In this document: one piece after another, positions 7,844-45,361 of the stretch
Layout: the number at the start of each line of letters is the position of its first letter
Position numbering within the stretch: the first letter of the stretch is position 1
Assembly (NCBI GenBank): GCA_944392225.1
Contig: CALXWB010000004.1
Location: forward strand, 206 to 64,205
DNA: 64,000 bases
Reading direction: 5' to 3'
Origin: an uncultured Alphaproteobacteria bacterium
GTDB taxonomy: Bacteria; Pseudomonadota; Alphaproteobacteria; RF32; CAG-239
Notes under the pieces: generated by a model
Told to the model about the DNA's origin: nothing
Seen by the model: only the letters and a program-made list of their open reading frames with translations
Database searches by the model: none
Translations under genes and position numbers: made by a program

Positions 7844-7845
7844 TA

Positions 7846-7884: not shown

Positions 7885-7908
7885 CGACTGTAAAGAATAT
7901 AACTCGAC

Positions 7909-8487: not shown

Positions 8488-8565
8488 TTTAACCTCCATA
8501 CAGTCTTATTTTTCCTATACTATAACTATATAATATTAATAAATCTTAAACAATCCTAACTTTAG

Positions 8566-9126: not shown

Positions 9127-9132
9127 AACATA

Positions 9133-10266: not shown

Positions 10267-10289
10267 AAATTTTACCTCACATATATATA

Positions 10290-11963: not shown

Positions 11964-11976
11964 TTTTTGCCCGTAA

Positions 11977-14746: not shown

Positions 14747-14761
14747 TTGACCATACCTTTT

Positions 14762-19519: not shown

Positions 19520-19909
19520 ATGAAAAAAAACATCAAAAATTTTTCAGGCAGTCTCCTTTTTACTTTAATTAACAATAGAAATATATTTCCGATTTTAATA
19601 TTTCTTTTCTTTATGTTTTTCACGCAAGCAGCTTTTGCGGCAGCTGCAACAACAAGCACTTCAACAGGTTTGTTTTCAGAGCTCATAAGCCGTGGAGCAG
19701 AAATTTTTAATGGCATGCGAGACATTATATATGTTGTATCCGGATTTGGCATCATCGGTGTTTCCGTTGGTGGCTTTTTTGGAAACATGAACTGGAAATG
19801 GCTGGGTGCAATTGTCATTGCACTGATGGTCATTGGCTTAACGGGAAGCATACTGAACTTTGTTGTTGGAGGCGAAAGTCAAACCGGCATTACCAATACA
19901 TTAAAATGA
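19520..19909 (+). CDS. virB2: VirB2/TrbC-family T4SS pilin, paralogue 2
   Basis: Signal 'FFTQAAFAAA', then 'IIYVVSGFGIIGVSVGGFFGNMNWKWLGAIVIALMVIGLTGSILNFV'. Shares the GFG...FG..(N/D)WKW core with paralogues 1 and 3. AAGGAG RBS. Confidence 0.65.
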   Translation: MKKNIKNFSGSLLFTLINNRNIFPILIFLFFMFFTQAAFAAAATTSTSTGLFSELISRGAEIFNGMRDIIYVVSGFGIIGVSVGGFFGNMNWKWLGAIVIALMVIGLTGSILNFVVGGESQTGITNTLK

Positions 19910-19923
19910 TGGGGAGAAAACAG

Positions 19924-21233: not shown

Positions 21234-21524
21234 ATGAGGGAAATGATTCTTAAAGCAGTGGCAAACCCGCCCAAGATATTGTGGGGGCCGTTTTTGCCTG
21301 TTTTGTTGAATCTCGGGCTGCAATTTCCGTTTATGTTCATGGCAATTGGATTGTTTGACATGAACCCGATATTTTTCTTGCTCAGCATTTTGATAGTGCA
21401 CATCATAATAATAAGCTTGGGCTTAAAAGAACCACATTTGTCCACCATGTTGCAAGCATATGGACAAACATATAGAAGAACCACCAACCTGTATAAAGTA
21501 AAGGGGACGAAATTTGCACCCTGA
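21234..21524 (+). CDS. virB3: VirB3-like T4SS inner-membrane protein
   Basis: 96 aa with two TM helices. 'LKAVANPPKILWGPFLPVLLNLGLQF' resembles the VirB3 'L.KA.TRPA...GVP' N-terminus. It overlaps the virB4 start, the usual virB3-virB4 arrangement. Confidence 0.7.
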   Translation: MREMILKAVANPPKILWGPFLPVLLNLGLQFPFMFMAIGLFDMNPIFFLLSILIVHIIIISLGLKEPHLSTMLQAYGQTYRRTTNLYKVKGTKFAP

Positions 21525-28047: not shown

Positions 28048-28718
28048 TGTTTGGTAAAAAAATAAAATTATTTATCTTGGTAATGATAATTTTTTCTGTG
28101 TTGACGCTTTTTTCAAAAGCGCAAGCATTTCCTTTGTTTGACCCGGGTAGTTTGGCATCACAAGTCGGCAATACGGTAACGGCAACGGCAAACAAAGTCA
28201 CCACCTTCAACAACAAAGTTGTCAAAGGTATATTGCAGACCTATAAGTCCATAGAAGATTTTTTTGCCAATTTGTTTACAAGAAAAGAGACAAAAGTTCC
28301 CGGAACAAAAGAGATAAAAGAAAGCAAAGTTGCCGATATGTCGAGCGAGGAATCAATTCGTGAAACGTTTCCTGAGCTGTTTTTCCGCTATCCGTCATTC
28401 GACCCCAATATTCAGTTGGCATATAAGCACGAAGGCAAAGAGTTTTTTGAAGACACAATGATAGAAGCCTTCACGGCAGTCAGAGAAATGGAAAAACAAT
28501 TGATAAAACTGGATGAAGAGATTGCCAAAACGGAAGAAGATTACAGCGATGCAGAAGATTTGAACGGTGGCTTGAATAATATATATATGATTTCGGCACA
28601 AACAGATAAGGTGATGACAATCATTCAGGAATTAGTTGCCATCAAGTCGCAAATGACGGCGGCTTATGCGGTTTACGGTGAGGTAGACCCGATATATGCG
28701 GCGCAAGAGAAAAAATAA
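28047..28718 (+). CDS. VirB5/TrbJ-like secreted protein (paralogue d)
   Basis: Abuts the previous stop. Signal ending 'KAQA'. Mature 'FPLFDPGSLASQVGNTVTATANKV'. Helical remainder. Confidence 0.35.
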   Translation: MFGKKIKLFILVMIIFSVLTLFSKAQAFPLFDPGSLASQVGNTVTATANKVTTFNNKVVKGILQTYKSIEDFFANLFTRKETKVPGTKEIKESKVADMSSEESIRETFPELFFRYPSFDPNIQLAYKHEGKEFFEDTMIEAFTAVREMEKQLIKLDEEIAKTEEDYSDAEDLNGGLNNIYMISAQTDKVMTIIQELVAIKSQMTAAYAVYGEVDPIYAAQEKK

Positions 28719-28737
28719 AATTTGCGGGAGAAAGAAG

Positions 28738-31700: not shown

Positions 31701-32385
31701 GAACATATACACGGGCACTTTGTCCACCAAAGAAGACGTGAAAAACATGCTTGGCTACAGCATACCGATGCAATCTGTTGTAACATACAGCAAACGCATG
31801 GAGGAAAGAGCCAATCAGGAAGATTCGGAAGATTTAACCCCCTCGGAACAAATAAACGATGATATATATGTCGGAGCACAGTATAACAATAACCAGGTTG
31901 GTGATTTTCTGGAACATGTAGAAATGGAGCAAACCTATAAAGAAGCGCTGGATGATTTGCAAAATGAAGCCGAAGAGATGAAAACCGAACTGATAGAAAA
32001 TCTTAAGAACTATGGTTTTGAACCCAGTTCAGATTTTGATATTTCAAAAGAACAAGATTATGAATTGGCCGTAAATAAGTTAAAATCATTGAAGAACCAA
32101 TATATTACGCAAGCCAAAACACAAATAGATGATATCAAACCCGGAGAATATGATGTTTTGAAAGATTATCAAAACTCATACAATCGGATATATCAAGGTT
32201 TGTCAATGGATACGGAAGCGGTGATGACCATGACAATGGATGTTGATGATTTATCCGAGTTTTCCGAGAACTTAAAAACGGCAACGGTTAATAACACGGT
32301 AGATGAAACCTATGAAAACGAGGGTGATGAAGACTTTGAAAACACGTTAAAGTCGATGAAACCGGCCTACTGTGCAGGATATTAA
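28738..32385 (+). CDS. Very large (1215 aa) secreted coiled-coil protein, T4SS-associated, function unknown
   Basis: Signal peptide 'MMRNISKIWSVSASLLLLLGNQAFA|AE' (ATG 28738 behind GGGAG). Central ~300 aa is Q/N/E/K heptad-like ('QSDLQELEQELAGYDNML...'). Cys-containing C-terminal globular part. It occupies the slot between the VirB5-like genes and virB8. Confidence 0.6.
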   Translation: MMRNISKIWSVSASLLLLLGNQAFAAEVSPAKADSAATTTALSQQNIVKQADQTETAQQEVSVKSSNFSGSVLSYAPAAKTDQKSPFSGSEEAMSELDKLEPIEKDLKTAVDIHNLINRLRGYKNIQKQYNNTKRLYDKSLQLLKDSEQCTIDYLGRYFNNPIKVWSGTDMRENPQNHDLRQGLSAWAIAMFETAKAAEVSPMDISDVVSIETQETEVVNEYGDVVEVETTINSSTSTVGVNVNNSSKESGKVTDISSLNASGEQQAKALQEQTQGNYFKEPGRQEELETEARKSQLLNLDIGAEVAEWMADYLAYGENSAIDGTKPGWNYPDLGGVKKRFPVWNDQKAFYSQYLKRKYDNIKNYIKNYKIEGDIRDIVSNAIFERQKQYMNVAEEQITLAAVNAKNTARKLYDDKVSAAQKDYEAQYDQLYDAHSAVINKINAQKNNQIAKYNQDIEIINQHRNAYMTHISDINAQNNRLQSDLQELEQELAGYDNMLAGLNQTPEQQADYQNAKKALETEINQLKSQIEESKKERDELQKLYDAETAKWEEINQKIKDVETKAQVDIAEENDKFQTAVEGLQADLEEKIKQYNRELEYKNSNIDQAELAAKAAIQSKSLITAQKIVSEADLSMEDAKETAYENVDKVYNAIMALGDDLYRGKAQETVAAYHQALIDSLKGNPAQINGEELKSAAVKVHDISNFNIDIVVSSYMDALMRDMYLEDYRKQVSNTNVLLTVSVFDKMLSGVDTSADTQYFVGSQPKVEDFRAPKTMPDYNLPPLREYVRLDNVDLQNLGKDALQITVPDMENFDQMNPKFYKVTAIDKEKFLSYGGKIPEVWKLMLQDKTFVDSDFDFNFDGKNILSLGDEMSPLYRGGIYPCKLVGIKNYLGQSCDISGKVENGEAVVDVLVVDKDKTNAGEYKLTLSLLSGDARTTAINQGLPTCQNITASCLGNKAQLKFLNGESLKNEIGAKIGSENYSELGSILNIYTGTLSTKEDVKNMLGYSIPMQSVVTYSKRMEERANQEDSEDLTPSEQINDDIYVGAQYNNNQVGDFLEHVEMEQTYKEALDDLQNEAEEMKTELIENLKNYGFEPSSDFDISKEQDYELAVNKLKSLKNQYITQAKTQIDDIKPGEYDVLKDYQNSYNRIYQGLSMDTEAVMTMTMDVDDLSEFSENLKTATVNNTVDETYENEGDEDFENTLKSMKPAYCAGY

Positions 32386-32396: not shown

Positions 32397-33158
32397 ATGG
32401 AACAAGAGAAGACACTGACAAACAACGGAAGCAAAGTTTTGTTGCTCAATGGAAAAGGGAGCAATGAGCAGATAAACTTTATCCAAGAACAAGAAAAAGA
32501 AGCAACAAGCTTCAAATTGATATATTACATCTGGATATCAAGAATGTTTATCTTTTTTGCCACCTTGTCGCTTCTTTTCATGTTTTTAACAAACCTGTCA
32601 CTGTTTCGTCTGGCTCCATTGGTTGAGGTAGAGCCTTTTTTGATAATCCGTCAAGATGATTCGGAAAATTTGGTTCGTTCCGAGCCGATAGCCACAGACA
32701 TGAGCTCCAAAGATTTAATATTTGAAACATTTATCAAGCAATATGTTATTTTGCGCAACACCTGGATCAATGACGAGCAGGAAATGAACAGCCGTTGGAT
32801 GCCGGGAGGAATGGTTCATTTTTTGTCTTCCTGGCCGATATACAGCCAATTCAACGCCGGGGTAAAAGACACAATCATTGCCATAAAAAATAATTCGCAA
32901 GTCCGCGAGGTGGAAATAATATCAATCGGGCGTCTTGGCGGTAAAAAGAGCGAGGTATGGAAGGTTGACTTCAAAACCTATGATATGATGCCAAACAAGA
33001 CCGGAGAGAGCAAAGGTTTTGTTATGAAAGAAAGATATTGGACGGCATCTGTCACGGCCAGACTATATCCCGAGAGAGTTTTCATGGGAAGAAGGTTAAT
33101 AAATCCGCTCGGGTTTACGGTCATCAGATACTCTCAATCTGAGGTTGAAATCTTCTAA
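32397..33158 (+). CDS. virB8: VirB8-family T4SS protein, paralogue 1
   Basis: Bitopic, with TM 'MFIFFATLSLLFMFLTNLSLF'. Periplasmic NTF2-like part with 'FIKQYVILRNTW', 'VWKVDFKTY', 'YWTASVTARL' and the terminal 'INPLGFTVIRY' (VirB8 'NPLGF.V..Y'). Confidence 0.8.
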   Translation: MEQEKTLTNNGSKVLLLNGKGSNEQINFIQEQEKEATSFKLIYYIWISRMFIFFATLSLLFMFLTNLSLFRLAPLVEVEPFLIIRQDDSENLVRSEPIATDMSSKDLIFETFIKQYVILRNTWINDEQEMNSRWMPGGMVHFLSSWPIYSQFNAGVKDTIIAIKNNSQVREVEIISIGRLGGKKSEVWKVDFKTYDMMPNKTGESKGFVMKERYWTASVTARLYPERVFMGRRLINPLGFTVIRYSQSEVEIF

Positions 33159-33504: not shown

Positions 33505-34239
33505 ATGGTTGAATCTTTACAAAAAAATCAGGTGGATCAAAAGCTCATATCCGGCCGCGCACAAGCCCCTTCGCAAAAGAAGGCTCAAAATGCGCCAAAA
33601 GATATTTTTGTAGCCAACATTGCTGAAAAAAGATATTTGTGGACAGCCAGAGCTTTTGCCGTTATCACGGCAATAAGCATTTGCTGCAACATTGTTTTGT
33701 TTTTGGCTATAATGCAGGTTATTCCGCTGTTTCGCGTAGAGCCGTTTTTGCTTTCATTTCAAGATAAACAGGAGCAAGTATACAACATTGTTCCGCTGCA
33801 AAATTTAGAAGATCAAAAAGCCATCAGCGAGATTTTTGTTCGTCAATATGTTTTGTTGAGAAGTTCGTTTTCTTCAGATATCCCGGAGATGGAAGCGCGT
33901 TGGATGCCGGGTGGTCCGGTGCAAGAAATGTCTTCTCCCGTGGTATATGAAGATTTTCAAAAAAACACGGCGCTCAGAGCGTTGGATATTATAAAATCCA
34001 AAGGCTTGACCAGAAGTGTAAAGATTATTTCCGCTAACGAGCTCACGCGCGGCTTGTGGCAGGTTGAATATGAAACAAGAGATATGTATCCAGATTCAAA
34101 GGCCCCGGAAGTCAATTACTGGACGGCATCTTTAAGAATAAGATACAGAGGAAAATCGGTAAAATACGGAGAACGACTGAAAAACCCGATAGGCTTTACG
34201 GTAGACAGATATTCTTTGACATATAACAAAGTTCAATAA
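33505..34239 (+). CDS. virB8: VirB8-family T4SS protein, paralogue 2
   Basis: TM 'FAVITAISICCNIVLFLAIM'. 'FVRQYVLLRSSF', 'LWQVEYETR', 'YWTASLRIRY' and 'KNPIGFTVDRY' are collinear with paralogue 1. Confidence 0.8.
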   Translation: MVESLQKNQVDQKLISGRAQAPSQKKAQNAPKDIFVANIAEKRYLWTARAFAVITAISICCNIVLFLAIMQVIPLFRVEPFLLSFQDKQEQVYNIVPLQNLEDQKAISEIFVRQYVLLRSSFSSDIPEMEARWMPGGPVQEMSSPVVYEDFQKNTALRALDIIKSKGLTRSVKIISANELTRGLWQVEYETRDMYPDSKAPEVNYWTASLRIRYRGKSVKYGERLKNPIGFTVDRYSLTYNKVQ

Positions 34240-34256: not shown

Positions 34257-35894
34257 ATGATTCAAAAAATAAGGAAAATATTTTTCTTCAACATAATGGC
34301 GATTTTTGTAAGCGTGCCATGTGTTTTTGCGCAAAATAACAGCCTCGATCAAAGTGCAGACCAAGATCAAGGTCAATACCGTTCTATGGATATGTCTTAT
34401 GCCGGGTTCGGCTCAATCGGAATGATGCAAAGTGCCTGGCTTGATCCGTTGCAAAATTTGGGCGAAGGACAAAGCAAGCCGGCATATTCCAAATATTATT
34501 GGTCGCCGGATTTGGTGCTGCCGGTGCGTTTGCGTGAAGGCATGATAACCATGATCAATTTCCCTGATTGGGAGATGGTGGAAGATGTTTATATCGGTGA
34601 CAATTCAACCTTTGACGGCCAAATTTCCGGGCCCAATACGGTTCTTTTATATCCCAAAAAAGGAGCCAATGTGGGTGTTGATACCAACGTGATTATCTTT
34701 GGCCGCTCCGGGAACAGATATGTCTTTTATGTCAGAAGTGAAGGTGTAAACACGGAAAGATTGACAAACTCAATCATAGATATTGAAGTTATTGGCGCCG
34801 ATGATACCGGCAGCCTGGGAAATTCTTCATCCGTGTCAAACGGTGGAAAAGGGGCATCGGCCGGTAGCGGCAACAGCAAATCTTTGGCTTCGACTTATAC
34901 CAAGCGCAACCAAAAGGACGATTGGCTGAAAAGCATTCCCGTAGACCCGGAAAAGTTCAGATTTGATATAGAGGTCTATGTTCCCAATCCCGATGATGTG
35001 GTAATTGCGCCGGAACGTGTTTGGAGAGATGATATTTTCACTTATATAGATTTTGGCAACAAAGCCGTAAATATGACGCAACGCCCGATTGTTACTCTGA
35101 TAAGTGAAAGGGTGGAAACCCCGGTCGGCTTTAGGACCAAAGGTCCAAACAATCGTCTGATGGTTGTTGAGGCCGTTGGTGATATGGTTTTGAGAAACGG
35201 CAAAAGAATAATCTGTCTGAAATTAAGACGTTCGGATGCGGCCGGGCTGGAATATGGCATTTATGCAGATGATGCCGCTCCGGGATGGGATGTTCCGCCT
35301 CCGCTGAAAAAAGGCGATTTGGAAGCTGCGTTTAACACGCAAATGGGAAGCGGAGGAGATTCTGTTCGTGAACAAACCTTTGACACGCAAAACGGCGGAG
35401 AATTTATCTTTCCGCAATACGGACAACAGGGAAGCAATTCCGGCTATGGAAATGGAGCGGGAGCACAATATGGCGGCTATGGCAACAATGCGCCGAGCAT
35501 GCAAAATTCCGCAGCCGGAGCGTATGATTATTCCAAAATGCAAAGGTTGCCGAACCAAACCAATGCCAACATAAACAGCGGCAACAGCAAATATTTGCAG
35601 CAATACGGCTATGGCAGCGGTTTTTCGGATACCAACACCAACATATCAATAGAGCTGGGCACAGATGCTAATGTTGAAAAGTTGGAAACGCTTTGGAACA
35701 CGCTGAACTCAAAATATGGTGCAGACCTTGGCAGATATGAGCCGTTTTATTCCGTGGATGCTCCGGCAGACGGACAAGGCAAAGAGCTGTTTCATTTGCG
35801 GGTCGGGCCGGTCAAGAGTTTGGAAGAAGGCGATGCTGTTTGCTCAAAATTAGGACGTAACGGAATATTTTGTAGTGTAGTAAGAACGCAATGA
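34257..35894 (+). CDS. virB9: VirB9/CagX/TrbG-family outer-membrane core protein with a G/Y/N/Q-rich linker and C-terminal SPOR domain
   Basis: Signal 'PCVFAQN'. VirB9 N-domain 'MITMINFPDWEMVEDVYIGD...VLLYPKK..VDTNVIIFGRSGNRYVFYVRS'. C-domain '..DIFTYIDFG..RPIVTLISE..GPNNRLMVVEAVG'. The last ~84 aa 'ISIELGTDANVEKLETLW..LFHLRVGPVKSLEEGDAVCSKLGRNGIFCSVV' fits the SPOR pattern. Confidence 0.8.
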   Translation: MIQKIRKIFFFNIMAIFVSVPCVFAQNNSLDQSADQDQGQYRSMDMSYAGFGSIGMMQSAWLDPLQNLGEGQSKPAYSKYYWSPDLVLPVRLREGMITMINFPDWEMVEDVYIGDNSTFDGQISGPNTVLLYPKKGANVGVDTNVIIFGRSGNRYVFYVRSEGVNTERLTNSIIDIEVIGADDTGSLGNSSSVSNGGKGASAGSGNSKSLASTYTKRNQKDDWLKSIPVDPEKFRFDIEVYVPNPDDVVIAPERVWRDDIFTYIDFGNKAVNMTQRPIVTLISERVETPVGFRTKGPNNRLMVVEAVGDMVLRNGKRIICLKLRRSDAAGLEYGIYADDAAPGWDVPPPLKKGDLEAAFNTQMGSGGDSVREQTFDTQNGGEFIFPQYGQQGSNSGYGNGAGAQYGGYGNNAPSMQNSAAGAYDYSKMQRLPNQTNANINSGNSKYLQQYGYGSGFSDTNTNISIELGTDANVEKLETLWNTLNSKYGADLGRYEPFYSVDAPADGQGKELFHLRVGPVKSLEEGDAVCSKLGRNGIFCSVVRTQ

Positions 35895-38800
35895 CAAAAA
35901 AAGAAACGGAACAACAAGTTTTAACACATTCTGAAGCTTATGTGAAGAAAACCAACAGAATCATATTGATTGTTGGTTTTACTTCGTTGTTTTTGTTTAT
36001 TGTCGGTGTGGTTTTATTATTAACGGAAGATACCTCAAATTATGAATATGAGGAGCCAAACTTCACGGATAATGCCGATGCCTTGAACATTGGGCAGCAA
36101 AGTCCGCTGTTAAATAACAATATCGAATTTCAAACCATAGAAGAAGATGAGATTCCGATAACATTGACGCCAAATCCTGTGCCGCTCGGTTCGGTTGTTT
36201 TGGGCACGGATGCGCAAAATGTTTTGACCTTGGGAACCAACGGCAAAGCCTCAATCGTCATAACGGCCGTGTTTTTGGCAGAACCGCCGGTAGATGGTTT
36301 TAGTTTTGAAGACAAATGCACGGGGCGGACGTTAACGGGAAAAGACACTTGCCATATTAGCATAAAATGGGTTCCGGTTTTGGCGGGAAATGTTCAAAAT
36401 AACTTTATTATATCTTGGCGAGAGACCAATTTGTCGGCACAGAGCATAAAATCGGAAAAAGTCCCGGTGATCGGAAGCGCCATCACGCAAGAAGAATGCA
36501 ACTATTGTGAAACGCCGATAACATCATCGCCGGCAACATCAAACCAAGGAAAAAAAGTGAGACAAGCCATCGGCCCGGACGGCAAAGTAATTGGTTGGAT
36601 TGATGAAGAAGGCATTGTCAGGGACGAAACCGGCAAGATTATCGGCCGCGTAAACAGCAATGGATTGATTGTTGATGACAATGGCAATGTCATAGGTATT
36701 GCCGACAATCAAAAAATTGTCGTGGATGAAAACGGCAATGTCATCGGCTATGTCGGGGCAGACGGACAAGTGGTGGACAAAAACGGCAATGTTATAGGCA
36801 AAGTTTTGCCGGACGGAACAGTGGTTGATAAAAATGGCAATCTTTTGGGCAAGGTTGTCGAAACGGGCTATGTATATGATGAAAACGGCAATATAATCGG
36901 CCGAGTTTTACCCGATGGCAGTGTTGTTGATGAAAATAATAATGTTATCGGCCGTGTCAATGCAAACGGAGAAGTTGTTGATTTGAACGGCAAAAGGCTG
37001 GGCTATGTCTCCAAGCAAGGCCGTGTTGCCGTAGATAAAAACGGCAATCGCTTGGGCGTTGTTATGCCCAACGGCTCCATTGTTGACAGCAATGGCAACA
37101 TAACCGGCAATTTAGATGATAACGGCAATGTGATAAGAGACAAATTTGTTGGTGTTGTCGGCAATAAGGGCACAATTGCACGAGATGAAAACGGCAATAT
37201 AATCGGCTATGTAAACGGCAAAAATGAGGTCGTAGACGGAGATGGAAAGATTATCGGAAGTGTTGATTCTTCAGGAAAAATCATAGATAAAGACAAAAAA
37301 ATAATCGGAAATGCAGATACCGGGGTCAACTTGGCATTAGACGGCAATGGCAAGGTGATTGGTTATGTAAATTCTCAAGGCCGAACATATGGGTTAAACG
37401 GAGAATTTTTGGGTGAAGCAGATAAAAACGGAAAAATAATTTCCAACATTCCCGAGATTGTGGGCAGCCTGGTAGATACGAGTTTGCTTGCCATAACGCC
37501 TAAAGGCCTGGTTCTTGGAAAAATACAAAATGACGGCACGGTTTTGAATGCGCAAGAGCAAATTGTGGGCAGAGTATTGTCCAACGGCTTGGTCAAAGAC
37601 GTTTCCGGCTCTGAAGTTATCGCCCGAACGCTCAGAGGCGGCACTGTTGTTGGATATGGCTGCACCCAAGTCGGTTCGTTGGATGAAAACGGAAAAATAA
37701 CCAAAAACGGTGCCGACATAGGCGCAAAAGTCAATTTTGACGGCACAATAGTCAGTAACAACGGCGCATTTTTAGGTGCGGTTGTTCCGACGGGAAAAGT
37801 TTTAGATGACAAATGCCAAATTTTGGGTATGGCGGCAGCCGATGGTTTGGTTCGCGATAATGTCGGAAAATATGTTGGTTGTGTCAACCCCGACGGCACG
37901 GTATTAAACGAGCAGGGGACAATTATCGGTAAGGTTTTGGAAAAAGGTTATGCGGCAGACATCAACGATCGCTATTTGGGAAAAATAGGCGATGACGGCT
38001 TTGTTAAAGACAAAGATTCTCGGTCATTGGGTTGTGTCGGCATTTTTGGTGATGTTTTGGATATCAACGGCAAATATATCGGTTCAAGAGTTTCTCAGAA
38101 ATATGCTTTTGATATAGACGGAAACTTTTTGGATATTGTTGACAACACCGGCATGGTTTCATTAACGGGAGAAAATCCGGCGCATCTTTCTTCCAACAAC
38201 TTGGTGATGGATGAAAATAACAAGATTATTGGTTTTGCCATAGACAATCAATCCTTTGTCACGGATGCTGCGGGACAGGTTAAGGGCAGACCTTTTTATG
38301 ATGGCAAGATATATGATTTCAAGGGTGTAAACATCGGCAAAATCAAAGGAAGCAAAAATATCTTTTTAAGCCGAAAGCTAAATGCGCTTCAAAATGCAGA
38401 AATCATAGTTGATTTTGATGGAAAAATTTTAGGAAAGAGCACTCCTGATGGCAAGGTCGTGAGTCGTTTTGGTGAAAAGTTAGGTAAAATAGACGGCAAA
38501 GGCAGATTCTTCAACCAAGAAGGCATCTATCAGGGCGGATACTTGAAAAAAGGTGCTGCCATAGGCTATAACGGCGCATATCTGGGCTATGTAACCAACC
38601 GCGGCATTGTGAAAGATTTGGACGGTCAAGACAACGGCAAAGTGACTTCTGATGGAAAAGTTTTGGACAATAAAGGCAAAATAGCCGGAGAGGTTGTTCC
38701 CAAAGGAGCCGTAATTGACAGCAACGGCCATTATGTCGGCACGTCTGACGGCTTGGGCGAAATATTGAATATGAAAGATGAAACAATCGGCATTATATTG

Positions 38801-39328
38801 CCCGGTGGTTTTTCAGAGCAAAGCTATAGCGTCATAAAAGAAGGCGGCATTATGGACTATTCCGGCAACATTGCGGGAAGTATTTTACCAAATGGTAAAA
38901 TTATCGATATCAATAATATGCAAGTTGGGCAGATTCTTCCCGATGGCAGCGCCATAAGTGAAAACGGCAAACTTTATGGCGAGATATTAGACGGGGACAT
39001 TGTCATCGGAAATGATGATAAAGTTGTGGGTTATGTGAATATTGATGGTACAATAATTGCAAAAGATGGTAATATCATTGGCAGAACCCTGTCGCGAGAC
39101 TTGGCCGTGAGTAACAACGGAGAAATATTGGGCCGCATTTTCAAGCTTGGTGTGAGCATATTAAATGACAAAGGAGAATATGTCGGCCGTTTGTCACCTC
39201 AGGGAGAAGTTCTTGATATGCAAGGAAAAACAATAGGTTATATAAAGAACAACGGCTCTTTTATAAATTTGGATAAAAAAATTGCAGGATATGCACTGCA
39301 AGAGGTGGCAAAAAACCGGAGGAATTAA
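35891..39328 (+). CDS. Giant (1145 aa) bitopic protein: N-terminal TM, Ig-like (choice-of-anchor-D/ASH-like) domain, then dozens of 17-residue repeats
   Basis: ATGA overlap with virB9. TM 'IILIVGFTSLFLFIVGVVLLL'. 'PLGSVVLGTDAQNVLTLGTNGKASIVI...FSFEDKCTGRTLTGKDTCHISIKWVPVLAGN'. The repeats then run 'DENGNVIGYVGADGQVV/DKNGNVIGKVLPDGTVV/DENGNIIGRVLPDGSVV...' to the C-terminus. Confidence 0.7.
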   Translation: MTKKETEQQVLTHSEAYVKKTNRIILIVGFTSLFLFIVGVVLLLTEDTSNYEYEEPNFTDNADALNIGQQSPLLNNNIEFQTIEEDEIPITLTPNPVPLGSVVLGTDAQNVLTLGTNGKASIVITAVFLAEPPVDGFSFEDKCTGRTLTGKDTCHISIKWVPVLAGNVQNNFIISWRETNLSAQSIKSEKVPVIGSAITQEECNYCETPITSSPATSNQGKKVRQAIGPDGKVIGWIDEEGIVRDETGKIIGRVNSNGLIVDDNGNVIGIADNQKIVVDENGNVIGYVGADGQVVDKNGNVIGKVLPDGTVVDKNGNLLGKVVETGYVYDENGNIIGRVLPDGSVVDENNNVIGRVNANGEVVDLNGKRLGYVSKQGRVAVDKNGNRLGVVMPNGSIVDSNGNITGNLDDNGNVIRDKFVGVVGNKGTIARDENGNIIGYVNGKNEVVDGDGKIIGSVDSSGKIIDKDKKIIGNADTGVNLALDGNGKVIGYVNSQGRTYGLNGEFLGEADKNGKIISNIPEIVGSLVDTSLLAITPKGLVLGKIQNDGTVLNAQEQIVGRVLSNGLVKDVSGSEVIARTLRGGTVVGYGCTQVGSLDENGKITKNGADIGAKVNFDGTIVSNNGAFLGAVVPTGKVLDDKCQILGMAAADGLVRDNVGKYVGCVNPDGTVLNEQGTIIGKVLEKGYAADINDRYLGKIGDDGFVKDKDSRSLGCVGIFGDVLDINGKYIGSRVSQKYAFDIDGNFLDIVDNTGMVSLTGENPAHLSSNNLVMDENNKIIGFAIDNQSFVTDAAGQVKGRPFYDGKIYDFKGVNIGKIKGSKNIFLSRKLNALQNAEIIVDFDGKILGKSTPDGKVVSRFGEKLGKIDGKGRFFNQEGIYQGGYLKKGAAIGYNGAYLGYVTNRGIVKDLDGQDNGKVTSDGKVLDNKGKIAGEVVPKGAVIDSNGHYVGTSDGLGEILNMKDETIGIILPGGFSEQSYSVIKEGGIMDYSGNIAGSILPNGKIIDINNMQVGQILPDGSAISENGKLYGEILDGDIVIGNDDKVVGYVNIDGTIIAKDGNIIGRTLSRDLAVSNNGEILGRIFKLGVSILNDKGEYVGRLSPQGEVLDMQGKTIGYIKNNGSFINLDKKIAGYALQEVAKNRRN
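36536..39310 (+). repeat. Degenerate in-frame 51-bp (17-codon) repeat array inside the 1145-aa ORF
   Basis: The periodicity is seen in the translation: consensus about D-x-[ND]-G-x-[VI]-[IL]-G-x-[VI]-x-x-[DN]-G-x-V-[VI]. The DNA copies are diverged. Boundaries are approximate. Confidence 0.7.
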
Positions 39329-39334
39329 ACTTTA

Positions 39335-42300
39335 ATGCTGCAAACCCGAAAAATACAAAGCCAAATAAAGAAAATAAACCAAATATTGATTTGTTGTTTG
39401 GTTTGTTTGCTTTTAAATGTAAACAGCACGCAGGCGCAGGAGATCACGGCCATAAATTTTAACGGCGATTTGCTTGGAAAAGTGATTCCCGACGGCAACG
39501 TAATAGGTTTTGATAACAGCATTATCGGCAAGGTAACGGCAGATAGTTTCATTGTTGACTTCAACGAAGAAATAATCGGCGGTATTGTTCCGCAGGGTGT
39601 TGCCATTGGAAATGATACCAAACTTTTGGGCAAAATAAATACAGACGGGACGGTCCGTTCTCCAAGCGGCAATATAATCGGCAAGACCTTGCCCAACGGT
39701 ATGGTTGTTAATGACTATTATGAGATTTTGGGAGCTGTTTTGTTCCCGGGTTTGGTTTATGGAGATTCCGGGCAAACGGTTGGTCGTTTGACCGGCGACG
39801 GAGATTATGTCAACCTCAAGGGACAAAAAATTGGTTTCATCACCCCGGATGGATATGCTTATCGCAAGGTGGCGGAAGATTATGTTCTTGATGGACGGTT
39901 AATATCATCAAAGATGGTCGTTTCATCAGAAGGCGAGTTTTTGGGAAGTGTTTCTCCCGGCGGCGAAGTTTATGACTTTGACGGCAAAAAAATCGGAAAT
40001 CTGAAAGCCAATGGCTACGTTTATAATGAGCAAGGCCGGGTAATCGGTGGTATTGTAAAATCGGGATACGCTTTTGACAATTTTGGCAGCTATTTGGGTT
40101 ACATCAGCTACAACGGCTTTGTGTTAGACAAAGGCAAACAGGTTGGCAGGTTGCGTGCAGACGGAAAAATAATCAATGATAAAAAAGAAGTTATTGGTAT
40201 TTTTGTCGGTGCCGATACGGCCGCAACGGATTCTAAAGGAAAATATTTGGGTCGCTTGCTTCCCAATGGCAAAATTGCTCCGGCCAATGAAGGAAAATAT
40301 ACGCTTTCGGCAAGAAAAAACGTTGTTGATGCGCAAGGTTCATCCCTTGGCAAACTAGTTGCCTCAGGCCCGATTATCAACTACTTAGGCAAAAATATAG
40401 CGCATGCCCTTCCTTGCGGAAAAATAATTTCTTTTGCCGGCAACACCATGGGATATACTAAGGGAGAAGATGCCTACAACACGCAGGGAAAAATTATGGG
40501 CAAAGTTTCTCAGCCGATGTTGGCTTGGCTCCAAAATGACGGATTAGCAACTCTGAGCGGAATTTCTGCACAAGTGGAAATGGCCGGCAATGTTTATTAT
40601 CTGTCTCCTTTTGGTTATAGCATTAGTGCAGAGGGAAACTTTGGTGGAAAAACATTTGCCCCGCAACCGATATATAATCAAATCGGGGCAATTCCCGGAG
40701 AGATAACACTTAACGGAGAGCTAAGCAGTGCGGATAACACGGCAAAATTATATCCTTCGGGCTATATTTTTACACCGCAGGGAGAAATGTTCGGAAAGCT
40801 GATTTCTGCATCATATGCACAAAATTTTGCAGATGTTTCGGCCGGTGTGCTTTCAGAAAATAATTTAGTTCTGGATAAAGAAAAAAAGATCATCGGAAAA
40901 ATTTTGCCCGGGTTGGATGTTGTATCAACAGATAAAGAAAACAGCACCAATATTCGCCCGATTATGGGAAAAGCCTCAGATTCAAACATGGCCATTTCAT
41001 TTGAGGGCATTTTGAACGGATATGTAAATGAAGAAGGCAACGTGCTTGATTTTTCATCAAACAAAATCGGCCAAATCAGTTCGGAAGGCTGGTTGATAGA
41101 CAACAACGGCACAATAACGGGCTTTACCGAAAAAGTAAAACCGATCAGAGATGAAAATTGTGCCTTTTTGGGGGTGCTCACACCAAGCGGAGATGTAAAA
41201 AATACCAAAGACATTTATATGGGGAAAATACTTGGTAACGGTCAAGTAATAAATGATTCGGAAACTATCATCGGCTATGGTGACACACCTCAAGCCCTGA
41301 TTGATGAAAACGGAAAAATAATAGGAACTTCGGATTCTTTGGGGCAGGCAAAAGATTTAAAAGGCAATGTTTTGGGTTGCCTGTCCACACAGGGATATTT
41401 ATATAGCAAAGATAATCAGTTGTTGGGCGGTAAAATAATTTTTGGCAACGTGATAGATTTTTCAAATCAAATTATCGGCAGTGTCAATGCCACCGGCCAA
41501 ATAGACGATGCCAACGGCACCAACATAGGCCATGTTCAACCGCAAGGCAACGTGGTTAACAAAGCCGGCAAAACATTGGGACAAATTATGCAATATGCGG
41601 TTGCTTTCAGAAATGATGGCCGCTATTTGGGATATGTCCGAGCCTCAACGGCAGAAGTTTTGAATGGCAAAAAAGAGGTTGTCGGCAAAGTCAATTTTGA
41701 CGGAAGCATCGTATTAGATAAAAAGAAAATAGGCTTTGCTCTTTATGATATGTATATCTATGACCAAAACAAAAAAGCCATCGGCATTATTGGGCGCGAT
41801 GGTGTTGTCCGCAGCTTTAATAATCGGATTCTCGGTGAAATAAAACGCGGGTTTGTCGTAGATAAAAACGACAAGGTTATAGCGCGTGGCAACCGAGATT
41901 ATTTTATCCGCAATGCAGATAAAGAAATAATCGGAGAGCTGGGCTTAGACGGAAGGGTCCTGGATTCTGAGGGGCGTGAAGTTGGAAAACTTGGAATAGC
42001 CGGAGAAATTGTTTCTGCCGAAAAAGGAAAAATAGCACAAGCTTATCCTCTGCAATATTATAGCAAAATCAGTGCGGAAGACGATTCTCGCGGTGATATT
42101 GCGTTGTCTGCAGATGGCAAAATTTTAGGCTATGTTGACGAGGATAAAAACGTCATAGATGCCAACGGCAACCTGATAGGAACGCAAGATGCAAAAGGTT
42201 TTATAAGAAACGGAAATAATGAAATTATCGGCCGAGTAATAAATCCGAACAATGTGGTAGACCAAGAAGGCAACATCATTGGCAAAAAAGATGAAAATGG

Positions 42301-44383
42301 TGTTGTGAGAGATGAAACTGGGGTTGAAATCGGCAGGATAGATGCCTCTGGTTTTATGAAAAACGGTGAGGGAAAGGTTACCGGTTTTGGTGCCGATAGC
42401 AATAACATTTATAATGAAGACGGAAACATCATCGGTCGTTTGAACGAGATGGGCAATGTTATAAATACCGAAGGTAAGAAGATTGGCGAAAAAGATTCAA
42501 ACAACAACATTGTTGATGAAAAAGGCAACGTCATCGGCATATTAGATGACAGCAATGCCGTAAGAGACAAAGACGGAAAAATCATAGCACATGTTCAACC
42601 CGATAATCAGGTTGCAGATTTTGCCGGCAAAATCATCGGCACGAAAAATGCTGCCGGAAAAATAGTCGATTCTTTGGGCGAAATCATCGGTCAAGTTTTT
42701 GCAGATGGCCGAGTTTTTGATGAAAGGGGCAACTTTGTCGGTCAAATCCAAGGAGATGGTTCGGTTAAAGATATCAACCAAAAAACAATAGGCAAACTCA
42801 ATGCCGACGGCACGGTTGTAAACGCCAACAACAGCATAATCGGCGGCATAGGTCGCGGTTGGTATGAAAAAGTCACCCCGCTTGAGAAGAAAGAAGAATC
42901 AGATGTTTTGCCGATAGGAACGCTTGGCAATACAGGTTCGGTCGGCCAAGGTGGAAAATATAGAAAATCATTGAACATAGCCTTAACGCCGGATGGAGAT
43001 TATCTGGGAGATATAATGGAAGATGGCAGTGTTGTTAATAAAAACGGCAAGGTCATTGGTCAAAAAACGCCAGATGGGCTGATTATTGATAAAGACGGCA
43101 CGTTGATAGGCATAGAAGAAATAAAGAAACCTGCGGGAGGAGATATTTTTGTTCCGGCCGGCACATTTGGCCAAGGTTCAGCCTACGGCATCGGAACAGG
43201 TCCGGGGGATAACTTAGGGCCAGGCGGCGGCTATGGCCCCGGAGAAAGATACAATGCGCAAAGGAGTGCGGCTTTGGCGGTAGCACAAGGGCAAAGACGT
43301 CAAAATATGCAAGTAGGCAAAATCAGCTCTTCAATCAGGAAAGAAGCTTTTGACGGCATGCAAAAAGATTGGAGCGACCAAGGTATTGATAAAATCTTGT
43401 CTTCATGGCGTGTAGACATGAGCGAAATGATATTGGCAGACAAGCCGATTCCGGCAGTCTTAGCCCGTTCAATTGATTCATCCAACCCCACCCCGGTTAC
43501 AGCATTTGTTGAAAGAAACGTTTATGCCGAAGAAGGCAGAAACGTGTTGATTCCTGCCGGCAGCCGGTTGATTGGTGAGTTTAACAGCATGGGGGCAGAG
43601 CAAGAAGCATCATCTGAAGCCGTCAAAGTTCAAATTAGTTGGCAGAGGCTGATTCGCCCGGATGGTTCAATGTTTAAGTTTGATGGTGTAACGGCAGATG
43701 CTCAAGGCAGAGGCGGTGCATTGGGATATTTGGACAGACAATTGTTCAGTCGATACAGTATGCCTTTGTTAACCACAGTTCTAACCAGCACAACGGCATA
43801 TTTGATGGCAGATGATTCAGAAACATCTGGAGAAACGGAATCCTCAAAGCAGCAAGCAGCTAATGATGCAAGACAAAATTTCTTAGATCAGATGAATCAA
43901 GTCTTTTCAAAAATTTTGGATGATAAAGCAGACATTGTTCCTTTGTCATATGTTCCGGCCGGCACCAGAATTATTGTCTTTCCAAAATCAGATTTATGGT
44001 TAAGAAGCATTGATCGTGATAAAGAAGAAAGCAGTGCCGCGATGGAGCGTCCGAAAGTTTTGATTGATGACCAAGCAAGATTGAGAGATGATAACAATAA
44101 TGGAAGCAGATCAGGACAAAGCAGCACAAGCAGCGGTTCTTCATCAGATAATGGTCAGGTTACCTATGAAGAAAATCAGACAAAATCCCGCCCGTTGATT
44201 GCACCGGAAAGATACAGTAAATCAAACAATAACACGCAACAACGCCAGGTTATAGTTCCGCCGCCGCCGCCGTCAACATCGGGAGCAACCTCAAGCAGAG
44301 CAAGTTCGGGTTCAGGCAACAGCAGCGCAAACAGTAGTTCTGGAAATTCAAATAAAAATAATTCTGTCCCGCAATTGTTTTAA
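39335..44383 (+). CDS. virB10: Repeat-expanded VirB10/TrbI-family protein (1682 aa; CagY/DotG-like architecture)
   Basis: N-terminal hydrophobic segment 'ILICCLVCLLLNV', then >1000 aa of the same 17-residue repeat. Next a Gly-rich segment, then a canonical TrbI/VirB10 core: 'ILADKPIPAVLARSIDSSNPTPVTAFVERNVYAEEGRNVLIPAGSRLIGEF...VQISWQRLIRPDGSMFKFDGVTADAQGRGGALGYLDRQ...YVPAGTRIIVFPKSDLWL'. Ends in a Ser/Asn-rich tail with PPPPP. Confidence 0.85.
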   Translation: MLQTRKIQSQIKKINQILICCLVCLLLNVNSTQAQEITAINFNGDLLGKVIPDGNVIGFDNSIIGKVTADSFIVDFNEEIIGGIVPQGVAIGNDTKLLGKINTDGTVRSPSGNIIGKTLPNGMVVNDYYEILGAVLFPGLVYGDSGQTVGRLTGDGDYVNLKGQKIGFITPDGYAYRKVAEDYVLDGRLISSKMVVSSEGEFLGSVSPGGEVYDFDGKKIGNLKANGYVYNEQGRVIGGIVKSGYAFDNFGSYLGYISYNGFVLDKGKQVGRLRADGKIINDKKEVIGIFVGADTAATDSKGKYLGRLLPNGKIAPANEGKYTLSARKNVVDAQGSSLGKLVASGPIINYLGKNIAHALPCGKIISFAGNTMGYTKGEDAYNTQGKIMGKVSQPMLAWLQNDGLATLSGISAQVEMAGNVYYLSPFGYSISAEGNFGGKTFAPQPIYNQIGAIPGEITLNGELSSADNTAKLYPSGYIFTPQGEMFGKLISASYAQNFADVSAGVLSENNLVLDKEKKIIGKILPGLDVVSTDKENSTNIRPIMGKASDSNMAISFEGILNGYVNEEGNVLDFSSNKIGQISSEGWLIDNNGTITGFTEKVKPIRDENCAFLGVLTPSGDVKNTKDIYMGKILGNGQVINDSETIIGYGDTPQALIDENGKIIGTSDSLGQAKDLKGNVLGCLSTQGYLYSKDNQLLGGKIIFGNVIDFSNQIIGSVNATGQIDDANGTNIGHVQPQGNVVNKAGKTLGQIMQYAVAFRNDGRYLGYVRASTAEVLNGKKEVVGKVNFDGSIVLDKKKIGFALYDMYIYDQNKKAIGIIGRDGVVRSFNNRILGEIKRGFVVDKNDKVIARGNRDYFIRNADKEIIGELGLDGRVLDSEGREVGKLGIAGEIVSAEKGKIAQAYPLQYYSKISAEDDSRGDIALSADGKILGYVDEDKNVIDANGNLIGTQDAKGFIRNGNNEIIGRVINPNNVVDQEGNIIGKKDENGVVRDETGVEIGRIDASGFMKNGEGKVTGFGADSNNIYNEDGNIIGRLNEMGNVINTEGKKIGEKDSNNNIVDEKGNVIGILDDSNAVRDKDGKIIAHVQPDNQVADFAGKIIGTKNAAGKIVDSLGEIIGQVFADGRVFDERGNFVGQIQGDGSVKDINQKTIGKLNADGTVVNANNSIIGGIGRGWYEKVTPLEKKEESDVLPIGTLGNTGSVGQGGKYRKSLNIALTPDGDYLGDIMEDGSVVNKNGKVIGQKTPDGLIIDKDGTLIGIEEIKKPAGGDIFVPAGTFGQGSAYGIGTGPGDNLGPGGGYGPGERYNAQRSAALAVAQGQRRQNMQVGKISSSIRKEAFDGMQKDWSDQGIDKILSSWRVDMSEMILADKPIPAVLARSIDSSNPTPVTAFVERNVYAEEGRNVLIPAGSRLIGEFNSMGAEQEASSEAVKVQISWQRLIRPDGSMFKFDGVTADAQGRGGALGYLDRQLFSRYSMPLLTTVLTSTTAYLMADDSETSGETESSKQQAANDARQNFLDQMNQVFSKILDDKADIVPLSYVPAGTRIIVFPKSDLWLRSIDRDKEESSAAMERPKVLIDDQARLRDDNNNGSRSGQSSTSSGSSSDNGQVTYEENQTKSRPLIAPERYSKSNNNTQQRQVIVPPPPPSTSGATSSRASSGSGNSSANSSSGNSNKNNSVPQLF
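39470..43110 (+). repeat. Degenerate in-frame 17-codon repeat array inside the virB10 homologue
   Basis: Examples: 'NDTKLLGKINTDGTVRS/PSGNIIGKTLPNGMVVN' early and 'DEKGNVIGILDDSNAVR/DKDGKIIAHVQPDNQVA' late. Same consensus as the upstream ORF. Boundaries are approximate. Confidence 0.7.
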
Positions 44384-44392: not shown

Positions 44393-45361
44393 ATGAGTTT
44401 TGCCGTATTAGAATCAGTTTTAAGGCCTTTGGCATATTGGTATAACCAAGACAACATTGAAGAGGTTGCCATCAATCGGTCAGGTCAAATATGGCTCAGA
44501 CTACGCGGTAAAAGGGCATATCCGTGGGTAATGTATAAAGATGAAAATTTAACCAAAGACTATTTGATTGATCTGCTTTATATCATAGCCAATACATATG
44601 AACTTCCTTTTGACCCGGTTTCCGGCAACCCGGTTGTATATGCCACGATTCCGGGAGAGCACCGTTTTTCGGCCATAGCCGGAAAAAACGTCATGTATGA
44701 CCAAGATGACTTGACAGGCGGAGTGGCCTTGACCATCCGTGTGCATAGTGATGATGTTGCTTTCGGTTTAGGTGATTATGGCTTGAAACAAGGAGAAAAG
44801 CTGCATCAATTAAGTGCCATCAAAAAGATAAAAGACCCGGATGATCCTTATGAAAAATTGCTTTTGAGCATCAAGCGCGGGGACCACATATTGGTTTCCG
44901 GCGCCACGGCAACGGGTAAAACAACTTTTTTAAACAATTTGTTGAAAATATTAGACATTCACAAAAGAATATTGACCATAGAAGATACGCGAGAGCTGAT
45001 TGTTCCGCATCCAAACCGGGTTCACATCACCTTGTCCAGAACGGAACAAACCAACGAGTTAACCTATGCCAAAGTCATAGACTTGGTTGTCCGTTTCACA
45101 CCGGATGCCATCATCGGTGGTGAGATATCAACCAACAATGCGGCCACCATATGGGAGCTTATGGGATCAGGACACGACAACTGTTTAGCAACAATCCACG
45201 CGGAAAGTTCTGAAGCGGCATATAATGCATTTGTAGACAGAATAATGCACACAGCCCCAACAATAGATAGAAACAAAACCATAGAAGAAATGAGAAAAAA
45301 GCTGCGTGTGGTTCAAATCAACCGCGACGGCAACTTAAGAACTGTGACGGAAATCACATAG
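44393..45361 (+). CDS. virB11: VirB11-family T4SS ATPase
   Basis: 322 aa. Walker A 'ILVSGATATGKTTFLN', 'ILTIEDTRELIV', Asp box 'DAIIGGEIS', His box 'GHDNCLATIHAES'. Position after virB10. Confidence 0.9.
   Translation: MSFAVLESVLRPLAYWYNQDNIEEVAINRSGQIWLRLRGKRAYPWVMYKDENLTKDYLIDLLYIIANTYELPFDPVSGNPVVYATIPGEHRFSAIAGKNVMYDQDDLTGGVALTIRVHSDDVAFGLGDYGLKQGEKLHQLSAIKKIKDPDDPYEKLLLSIKRGDHILVSGATATGKTTFLNNLLKILDIHKRILTIEDTRELIVPHPNRVHITLSRTEQTNELTYAKVIDLVVRFTPDAIIGGEISTNNAATIWELMGSGHDNCLATIHAESSEAAYNAFVDRIMHTAPTIDRNKTIEEMRKKLRVVQINRDGNLRTVTEIT

Follow-up and report, generated by a model that had tools for sequence, protein, structure and literature searches.

A VirB10 homologue in two parts: adjacent repeat-rich genes probably encode its inner- and outer-membrane halves in uncultured Alphaproteobacteria

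The 64,000-nucleotide (nt) stretch of DNA analysed here (the window; GenBank assembly GCA_944392225.1, contig CALXWB010000004.1, positions 206 to 64,205) comes from an uncultured Alphaproteobacteria bacterium and carries a virB-type gene cluster for a type IV secretion system (T4SS). Between its virB9 and virB11 genes lie two open reading frames (ORFs), ORF1 of 1145 amino acids (aa) and ORF2 of 1682 aa, each consisting largely of a long array of beta-hairpin repeats. VirB10 is the T4SS subunit that usually connects the inner membrane with the pore in the outer membrane, and ordinary VirB10 proteins are about 380-630 aa long with a Pro-rich linker. We conclude that ORF1 and ORF2 are probably the inner-membrane and outer-membrane halves of one repeat-inflated VirB10, which would form a coupled periplasmic scaffold. 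Comparisons at the level of sequence show the homology of the two ORFs to a single VirB10 and the evolutionary order of the forms, single chain before divided pair. The split pair is apparently undescribed and, as far as we have found, is the first naturally divided VirB10.

The relationship rests on a group of single-chain relatives. An exhaustive HMMER search with the TrbI region of ORF2 recovered proteins of 1400-1900 aa together with a set of 1930-2406-aa proteins, which also carry Bflower_2, DUF3659 and TrbI matches on one chain (the fused type, as opposed to the split type of the window). The N-termini of these single-chain giants have no signal peptide; they consist of a short charged tail (e.g., SSSEQYVKKSNR) and a strongly hydrophobic helix, followed by a domain with a C-x(9-14)-C...W-x-P signature, which is the layout of the ORF1 N-terminus. 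In BLASTP comparisons, residues 1-230 of ORF1 are colinear with the first ~220 residues of 18 of the 19 giants sampled (E 3e-24 to 2e-4), the nineteenth (P0325) matching at only E 0.055. The best high-scoring segment pair of ORF1 falls on the N-terminal half of the giants (e.g., residues 8-1133 against 3-1158 of 2201), and that of ORF2 on their C-terminal part (e.g., 40-1682 against 473-2201). The locus of the 1930-aa giant reads virB8, virB9, a single gene and then virB11, with no separate ORF1; at a second fused-type locus (contig L058), a protein of the 2201-aa type is broken by an apparent frameshift into overlapping ORFs of 276 and 1906 aa. In the closest relatives of ordinary size (440-660 aa) a Cys pair occupies the corresponding position, and most of them show an N-terminal hydrophobic segment and Pro-rich stretches ahead of TrbI; the N-terminal domain of these relatives aligns with residues 83-199 of ORF1 in hhalign (99.2%, E 8e-20). 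The original prediction for this locus, made by a model from the letters of the window, had pictured the repeats as attached to or partnered with the secretion core; ORF2 is indeed a repeat-bearing VirB10, but ORF1, by its homology to the N-termini of the giants, is its N-terminal half rather than a separate partner.

To place the two types relative to each other, a neighbour-joining tree was reconstructed from 220 TrbI-domain columns (Kimura-distance bootstrap, 100 replicates). In 99 of 100 replicates the giants group as a single clade, separate from the ordinary-sized relatives, and the split type forms one clade in 94. The fused type was recovered as its own clade in only 6 replicates, and is therefore usually paraphyletic around the split clade. 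As judged from these sequences, one origin of the repeat insertion and one later fission would be the simplest history. The ancestor of the subfamily would have carried, ahead of a TrbI barrel, a cytoplasmic tail, a transmembrane helix, an Ig-like domain and a Pro-rich linker. In one alphaproteobacterial lineage, known only from metagenome assemblies of gut and rumen, the linker would then have been replaced by a long hairpin array, giving the single chains of 1930-2406 aa, and in the window's clade the gene would have become two cistrons. ORF1 would have kept the tail, transmembrane helix, Ig-like domain and ~50 hairpins; ORF2 would have gained a cleavable Sec signal peptide and kept ~70 hairpins, the Gly-rich linker, the barrel with its putative antenna and the VPxLF tail.

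The divided arrangement is a stable property of a clade. One genome per GTDB species was taken, giving 56 loci, all of them metagenome-assembled genomes of uncultured Alphaproteobacteria or proteobacteria (including 'Proteobacteria bacterium CAG:495'), and many of their isolate names point to human, mouse, rabbit or deer gut. The clade presumably belongs to the GTDB order RF32, to judge by the classification of the 'CAG:495' and 'Azospirillum sp. CAG' genomes. Conservation of the pair in relatives, which the original prediction had proposed to look for, is extensive: the order VirB8-VirB8-VirB9-ORF1-ORF2-VirB11 is found in 51 of the 56 species-level genomes, and the other five loci are truncated by contig ends. 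Where the contig suffices, a gene in the VirB6 position lies upstream of the VirB8 pair, and usually four conserved opposite-strand genes follow VirB11. A search with ORF2 yielded 991 relatives at E <= 1e-5, the top 120 all being 1470-1770 aa long with Bflower, DUF3659 and TrbI matches. The few relatives that have names, from uncultured Alphaproteobacteria, are entered as hypothetical, 'YD repeat' or 'trbI family' proteins. A word-indexed search with residues 1-230 of ORF1 returned only short same-clade fragments. Among 72,556 plasmids searched with tblastn, 393 records match the TrbI domain only, over at most 15% of the query.

Within the window the reading frames are as originally predicted, with coordinates, lengths, overlap and spacing all exact when read against the sequence. 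The TGA stop of virB9 and the ATG of ORF1 overlap in an ATGA (35891-35894), ORF1 ends in TAA, and after six nucleotides (ACTTTA) ORF2 begins with ATG at 39335, preceded by a Shine-Dalgarno GGAGG (39318-39322) within the 3' end of ORF1. Joining of the two products by readthrough or frameshifting was considered and rejected: in 17 of 51 loci the two ORFs are in the same frame, as many as chance alone would give, and each of the three stop codons occurs among the loci, so a readthrough fusion is not conserved. It might also be supposed that the split is a sequencing or assembly error, or a single gene that has become a pseudogene. The broken fused gene on contig L058 speaks for this, and in the window ORF1 and ORF2 do lie in the same frame. 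Nevertheless, the same split, with the same EVAKNRRN end of ORF1, a signal peptide and the same mature start of ORF2, recurs in 51 independent genomes, and this recurrence, the random frame relation and the Shine-Dalgarno sequence ahead of ORF2 make this explanation extremely improbable. An assembly artefact in the window is likewise unlikely, given the same-ended pair in those genomes and a 323-aa fragment of ORF1 that is present with 100% identity in an independent ENA assembly.

The N-terminus of ORF1 places this half at the inner membrane. The tail motif LTHSExYxKKTNRIIL is kept across orthologues, and the helix that follows (Kyte-Doolittle maximum 2.95 over residues 20-49) is conserved in 51 orthologues, with KKTNR on the inside and an acidic stretch on the outside. 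Because of this tail, helix and acidic stretch, ORF1 is read as inner-membrane-anchored, with the remainder in the periplasm. A full-length AlphaFold2 model (26-sequence alignment; mean predicted local distance difference test score, pLDDT, 79.8; predicted template modelling score, pTM, 0.66 over 1145 residues) comprises a helix (13-44), a beta-sandwich (90-198), unbroken hairpins (224-1135) and a short terminal helix. Foldseek of this model against the PDB matched the sandwich to ASH/PapD-like domains (prob 1.00) and nothing else, so that hydropathy, model and structural matches all bear out the transmembrane anchor and Ig-like domain first proposed for ORF1. In the orthologue alignment eight Cys are invariant: a pair in the Ig-like domain (C143, C154), a CxxC after it (C203, C206), and residues 591, 642, 664 and 715 in the array. 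Their conservation would fit an oxidising, periplasmic compartment. The array is modelled as all-beta, with alternating 5- and 3-residue strands (pLDDT 75-92), and its units keep their positions from one orthologue to the next, with Gly and Asp columns that never vary and a mean column identity of 55%. A pTM of 0.66 on so long a chain implies that in the model the array behaves as a single rigid body and not as many mobile domains; this body could be a superhelical ribbon or a stack of barrels. The closing EVAKNRRN is identical or nearly so in the 51 orthologues and in metagenomic orthologues.

ORF2, by contrast with the single-chain relatives, which have tail, transmembrane anchor and barrel on one polypeptide, leaves the first two to ORF1. 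Across 55 sequences (ORF2 and 54 orthologues), the residue at position -1 of the predicted signal-peptide cut is Ala (53) or Ser (2), position -3 is A, V, T or S in 52, and the h-region has a median of 13 aa; the segment before the cut is variable, positive and then apolar, and leads into a conserved mature start, (Q/E)EI(T/S)A(I/V)(D/N)F. Since its N-terminus shows this pattern of a cleaved Sec signal peptide, the barrel-bearing ORF2 appears to have no membrane anchor of its own. The split-type orthologue with the largest array of its clade (2366 aa; contig L016, 2992-10092) keeps the signal peptide and the mature start QEITAIDF.

At the other end of ORF2, Pfam TrbI (PF03743) matches residues 1366-1556 and scores 126.6 bits (cut-off 35 bits; E 1.4e-36). 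The TrbI/VirB10 core had been predicted at the end of ORF2 only, and ORF1 has no TrbI domain in Pfam. Among PDB sequences, the ORF2 domain matches ComB10 (2bhv, E 5e-20) and also TrwE, TraF, CagY (8cb2) and Xanthomonas VirB10. It scores below the NCBIfam equivalog cut-offs (T4SS_VirB10, 110 against 220 bits; ComB10, 109.5 against 300), and is therefore a divergent VirB10. The antenna region (residues ~1464-1529, nt 43724-43921) is spanned by the ComB10 HMM alignment and modelled as two helices (~1464-1490 and 1503-1529) at pLDDT below 50. For the modelled segment 861-1600, hairpins extend to residue ~1260 with pLDDT mostly 63-85 and dips in loops, and Foldseek returned VirB10 homologues as all of its top 20 hits with poor TM-scores; given the low confidence in the TrbI part, the model is used there for secondary structure only. 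No Pro-rich periplasmic linker is present in ORF2, where hairpin arrays take its place and only a short Gly/Pro-rich stretch (residues ~1280-1300) is found. The C-terminal VP(Q/A)LF is invariant in 56 orthologues. An [LMI]F end is also seen in most single-chain giants and is absent from the two ordinary-sized relatives read; a C-terminal Phe is reminiscent of outer-membrane protein sorting signals. With its barrel and its position between virB9 and virB11 in a virB-type cluster, the ORF1/ORF2 pair is a member of the VirB10 family, and it falls outside the family's description as a single bitopic chain with a Pro-rich linker.

This topology bears on a different reading of the locus, in which the VirB10 consists of ORF2 only, ORF1 being an accessory repeat protein of no relation to it, and the arrays form an external sheath or adhesive fibre. 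Such a role would be in keeping with the lack of a TrbI domain in ORF1, with the identity of only ~25-27% between the two arrays, and with the surface exposure that has been proposed for the repeats of CagY. However, the non-repeat N-terminus of ORF1 is homologous to the N-termini of both the giants and the ordinary-sized relatives, and a separate ORF1 is missing from fused-type loci. Both arrays also start in the periplasm, as ORF1 is inner-membrane-anchored and the ORF2 array precedes a barrel that is entered from the periplasm. An accessory ORF1 is thus improbable. The elongated structure that was originally envisaged, periplasmic or at the surface, can be narrowed accordingly: an anchor in the inner membrane bounds the arrays on one side and the outer-membrane barrel, by its periplasmic face, on the other, which makes a surface adhesive fibre unlikely and leaves the periplasmic option.

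The repeat itself was predicted to be a degenerate 17-residue unit shared by both ORFs, and this is borne out by residue identity at lag 17, which is 0.235 over residues 231-1145 of ORF1 (z = 15.5) and 0.174 over residues 35-1290 of ORF2 (z = 12.4; 200 shuffles each), with harmonics at 34 and 51. The C-terminal 392 aa of ORF2 have no period. An iterated 17-aa hidden Markov model (HMM) identified at least 43 units in ORF1 (residues 230-1123) and at least 48 in ORF2 (43-1260), with the consensus DKNGKIIGKVNPDGKV; the array lengths correspond to ~50 and ~70 units, respectively, and the most regular stretch of the ORF2 array is residues 924-1165. The unit follows the pattern D-x-N-G-x-(V/I)-(I/L)-G-x-V-x-x-D-G-x-V-V and contains, over and over, the hairpin-tip motif [DNEQ]xxG. 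In Pfam, the arrays match Bflower_2 (PF21785; E 2.5e-61 in ORF1 and 5.5e-71 in ORF2) and, as the original prediction had suggested checking, DUF3659 (PF12396; E 1.5e-22 and 1.4e-21). Scores for Bflower_2, Bflower (PF21784) and DUF3659 are 204.9, 66.3 and 79.7 bits in ORF1 and 236, 78.7 and 76.6 bits in ORF2, against gathering cut-offs of 38, 25 and 24.8 bits. The repeat is therefore already in Pfam, and as a sequence family it is not new; the families that it matches are all uncharacterised, and none is a well-characterised domain with a role outside secretion. The YD family, also suggested at the outset, did not hold: RHS_repeat (PF05593) reaches 20.9 bits in ORF1 against a cut-off of 22, NCBIfam YD_repeat_2x has a whole-protein score of 26.4 bits, and no single stretch passes in either case. 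The label 'YD repeat' that JGI attaches to such proteins goes back to a resemblance in the hairpin motif and to nothing more.

A beta-hairpin repeat had been anticipated, and the AlphaFold2 models consist of all-beta, short-strand hairpins. The array has no solved analogue, in that a PDB sequence search with ORF1 gave nothing meaningful and Foldseek of the ORF1 model matched the Ig-like domain only. The beta-flower families date from 2023 and are known only as AlphaFold models, in which 4-6 beta-hairpins (~96 residues) close into a small barrel, with a [DNEQ]xxG tip motif and, in many cases, an enclosed C-terminal helix (Durairaj et al. 2023). The authors saw no relative in the PDB and gave the families no function, and secretion systems do not figure in their paper (Durairaj et al. 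2023). Our searches of the literature turned up no paper linking DUF3659, Bflower/PF21785, RF32 or CAG-239/CAG-495 to secretion, and none describing a VirB10 with a beta-hairpin repeat. The window arrays share with the described families the high scores, the tip motif and the short antiparallel strands. They differ in that 50-70 units follow each other with no 5-unit super-period; this and the pTM of the whole chain are indirect signs of a continuous array.

In a serious alternative, the hairpin units fold into many closed beta-flower barrels, each separate from the next as in a string of beads, and these act as peptidoglycan- or lipid-binding modules fixing or spacing the machine in the wall. 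The units do score above gathering for both Bflower_2 and Bflower, the conserved short helix at the end of ORF1 recalls the C-terminal helix that many beta-flowers enclose, and the neighbouring VirB9 has a peptidoglycan-binding SPOR domain. On the other hand, neither an 85-aa (5-unit) super-period nor any other was found in the arrays, the lag signal falling monotonically; a pTM of 0.66 over 1145 residues is hard to square with ten mobile 85-aa domains; and the beta-flower fold has no known ligand-binding residues. We consider a beads-on-a-string arrangement unlikely on balance.

Array length varies between species. ORF1 orthologues are 1037-1345 aa long (n = 51) and reach 1581 aa in metagenomes, and ORF2 orthologues are 1420-2366 aa long (n = 54). 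Within clusters at 90% identity, length is essentially fixed; for example, the listed members of a 141-member cluster are 2201 aa (one 2202), and another cluster has lengths of 1514, 1515 and 1497. Repeat copy number therefore varies between species and not detectably between close strains. The DNA copies have diverged, as the original prediction had noted in arguing for a structural role over recent slippage, and Tandem Repeats Finder reports a single weak array (51 nt x 2.4, 76% matches, 36722-36841). In CagY, repeats are kept as DNA direct repeats that recombine to vary function, and a comparable contingency or antigenic-variation device, in which recombination changes copy number to tune or hide the machine, would account for the overall ranges of 1037-1581 aa in ORF1 and 1407-2366 aa in ORF2. 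Yet the diverged copies, the position-conserved units and the constancy of length inside clusters all run counter to it, and we regard such a device as very improbable.

Taken as two halves of one VirB10, ORF1 and ORF2 suggest the following arrangement. To judge from topology, both arrays would be periplasmic and in the position of the VirB10 linker, that of ORF1 rising from the inner membrane and that of ORF2 hanging from the outer-membrane core complex. Arranged in the usual multi-copy ring, such arrays would build a rigid all-beta scaffold of very large size, comparable to the collar that the repeats of DotG and CagY have been suggested to form. VirB10 is believed to relay conformational changes powered by ATP from the inner membrane to the gate in the outer membrane; if that bridging role is retained, the halves must associate non-covalently, and the scaffold could provide a coupling between the ATPase complex of the inner membrane and the gate that involves no covalent bond. 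Contact might be made by packing of array against array, or by the invariant C-terminus of ORF1 meeting the invariant mature N-terminus of ORF2. We offer only tentatively the stronger proposal that VirB10 works here as two polypeptides joined solely non-covalently by long rigid arrays, within a new and very large periplasmic T4SS superstructure; this is possible, though we would not presume it. If true, VirB10 could function without being covalently continuous across the periplasm and, at the usual T4SS stoichiometry of ~14-fold, each machine would contain ~30,000 hairpin residues.

It should be noted that several points weigh against the divided-VirB10 interpretation. The tree is a simple neighbour-joining tree on 220 columns. 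ORF1 and ORF2 together (2827 aa) are ~400-900 aa longer than the fused forms, so further expansion or partial duplication went with the split; a partial tandem duplication with reciprocal loss would look like a simple fission, and the repeats prevent the break point from being placed. Cleavage of the ORF2 signal peptide is deduced from the -3/-1 rule and the conservation pattern, contact between the two arrays is deduced from topology, and AlphaFold2 confidence is low in the TrbI part of ORF2. Finally, no VirD4 coupling protein and no relaxase were recognised among the window proteins.

Comparison with known systems places the pair beside two repeat-inflated VirB10 proteins. The predicted CagY/DotG-like architecture with a different repeat is what was found, since the repeats are unrelated. 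Like ORF2, CagY of Helicobacter pylori is a giant whose C-terminal VirB10 domain follows a very long repeat region and whose gene adjoins a virB9 homologue, and the ORF2 TrbI domain aligns with the CagY chain 8cb2. There is no similarity to CagY outside residues 1367-1554 of ORF2, the two kinds of repeat are not related, and the single chain of CagY contrasts with the two chains of the window protein. The diverged DNA copies and stable lengths within clusters also contrast with the recombining direct repeats of CagY. DotG (IcmE) of Legionella and Coxiella likewise has a VirB10 C-terminal domain after a repeat region of variable number, for which a role as a collar in the periplasm, located between the inner membrane and the outer-membrane complex, has been suggested. 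Its repeat has 10 residues, [KR]-x-A-G-[FY]-[STND]-x-x-x-[LI], and a low-confidence structure prediction, whereas the window unit is a 17-residue beta-hairpin predicted at pLDDT ~80-90; DotG is moreover a single chain with its own membrane anchor, and the window system is VirB-like (type IVA) in gene content, not Dot/Icm. The canonical VirB10, TraF (pKM101), TrwE (R388) and ComB10 share with the window pair the TrbI barrel (its antenna helices being putative in ORF2), the position between virB9 and virB11, and a short cytoplasmic tail with one transmembrane helix, here on ORF1. The pair differs in that the linker is replaced by ~120 hairpin units (~2100 aa), the polypeptide is divided, and its subfamily has an Ig-like domain after the transmembrane helix.

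The features of ORF1 and ORF2 and of the surrounding genes are listed in Table 1.

Table 1. Positions of ORF1, ORF2, their domains and neighbouring genes in the window
Feature	Position (nt)	Strand	Basis or remark
Ser/Thr protein kinase, PP2C phosphatase and VWA-domain protein in a row	1182-4088	-	left window edge
Type IVb pilus cluster, complete-looking	5307-17057	-	upstream, adjoins T4SS cluster
Two TrbC/VirB2-like pilin genes	18949-19473, 19798-21093	+	virB-type cluster
VirB4	21514-23943		virB-type cluster
1229-aa protein, VirB6 position	28696-32385	+	no Pfam match; weak SMC-like coiled-coil matches only
Two tandem VirB8 paralogues	32397-33158, 33505-34239	+	
virB9 homologue (CagX domain) with C-terminal SPOR	34257..35894	+	Pfam CagX E 3.7e-14, SPOR E 2.9e-5
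SPOR (peptidoglycan-binding) domain of VirB9 homologue, aa 465-543			
ORF1, complete	35891..39328	+	between virB9 and virB11
ORF1 cytoplasmic tail and transmembrane helix, aa 1-49	35891..36037	+	hydropathy, AlphaFold2 helix 13-44
ORF1 Ig-like (ASH/PapD-like) beta-sandwich, aa 83-199	36137..36487	+	AlphaFold2 pLDDT ~80-88, Foldseek, weak Pfam ASH match
ORF1 array of ~50 hairpin units (Bflower_2/DUF3659 type), aa 224-1135	36560..39295	+	Pfam, lag-17, HMM, AlphaFold2
ORF1 short C-terminal helix and end ...EVAKNRRN with stop	39296..39328	+	AlphaFold2 helix 1136-1144
ORF2, complete	39335..44383	+	between virB9 and virB11
ORF2 Sec-type signal peptide (predicted), aa 1-34	39335..39436	+	predicted cut after TQA34
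ORF2 array of ~70 hairpin units, aa 35-1268	39437..43138	+	Pfam, lag-17, HMM, AlphaFold2
ORF2 Gly-rich linker (GPGGGYGPGERY) and short helix, aa 1269-1362	43139..43420	+	invariant columns; AlphaFold2 helix aa 1308-1323
ORF2 TrbI/VirB10 barrel, aa 1363-1563	43421..44023	+	Pfam TrbI, PDB sequence matches, Foldseek
ORF2 low-complexity Ser/Asn/Gly tail with PPPPP, 119 aa, aa 1564-1682	44024..44383 including stop	+	translation
virB11-type ATPase, directly downstream of ORF2	44393..45361	+	Pfam T2SSE E 2.4e-23; 86-93% identity in nearly all related loci
Four genes, 209, 419, 194 and 808 aa	45421-50438	-	no Pfam match
1195-aa protein, M23 peptidase and VgrG3-like C-terminal (peptidoglycan hydrolase-type) domain	52126-55713	-	downstream
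1020-aa unknown	55779-58841	-	beside downstream TrbL/VirB6-like genes
TrbL/VirB6-like genes, 458 and 670 aa	58845-60221, 60240-62252	-	~10 kb downstream

Five proteins of the virB-type cluster have no family match. A SPOR domain on VirB9 is uncommon and suggests that the core complex is tied to the cell wall. The tandem VirB8 pair is kept in the related loci that reach far enough upstream; duplicated VirB8 together with several or enlarged VirB6-like genes is reminiscent of the rvh system of Rickettsiales. The second TrbC/VirB2-like gene encodes 431 aa, several-fold the usual pilin length. The four opposite-strand genes downstream of virB11 are syntenic with the T4SS cluster in nearly all relatives with enough downstream sequence, and could be unrecognised machine parts or effectors; the 571-, 419- and 808-aa neighbour proteins, the latter two from this group, gave no match in Pfam, NCBIfam or PDB sequences (none of significance in the PDB for these two). 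The 1195-aa M23/VgrG3-like protein could be a wall-remodelling enzyme for the machine or an antibacterial effector. The upstream type IVb pilus cluster contains bundlin/PilS-type pilins, TcpQ, a secretin, PilO, two T2SSE ATPases and one T2SSF.

To our knowledge, only two kinds of repeat-inflated VirB10 were known before, CagY and DotG, and the window protein is a third, independent one. The repeats of CagY and DotG are not resolved in any structure; the architecture of the present arrays may be easier to solve, because AlphaFold2 predicts the repeat with good confidence. The system would also provide the first functional setting for the beta-flower/DUF3659 repeat. Division into an inner-membrane and a secreted outer-membrane part bears on whether VirB10 must be one chain in order to couple the two membranes, and the naturally occurring fused and split variants are controls for any coupling model. 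The system is chromosomal and syntenic and occurs in no fewer than 56 species-level genomes, from the guts of humans, primates, rodents and ruminants, and the conservation of so unusually elaborate a T4SS hints at host or cell interactions of these uncultured Alphaproteobacteria.

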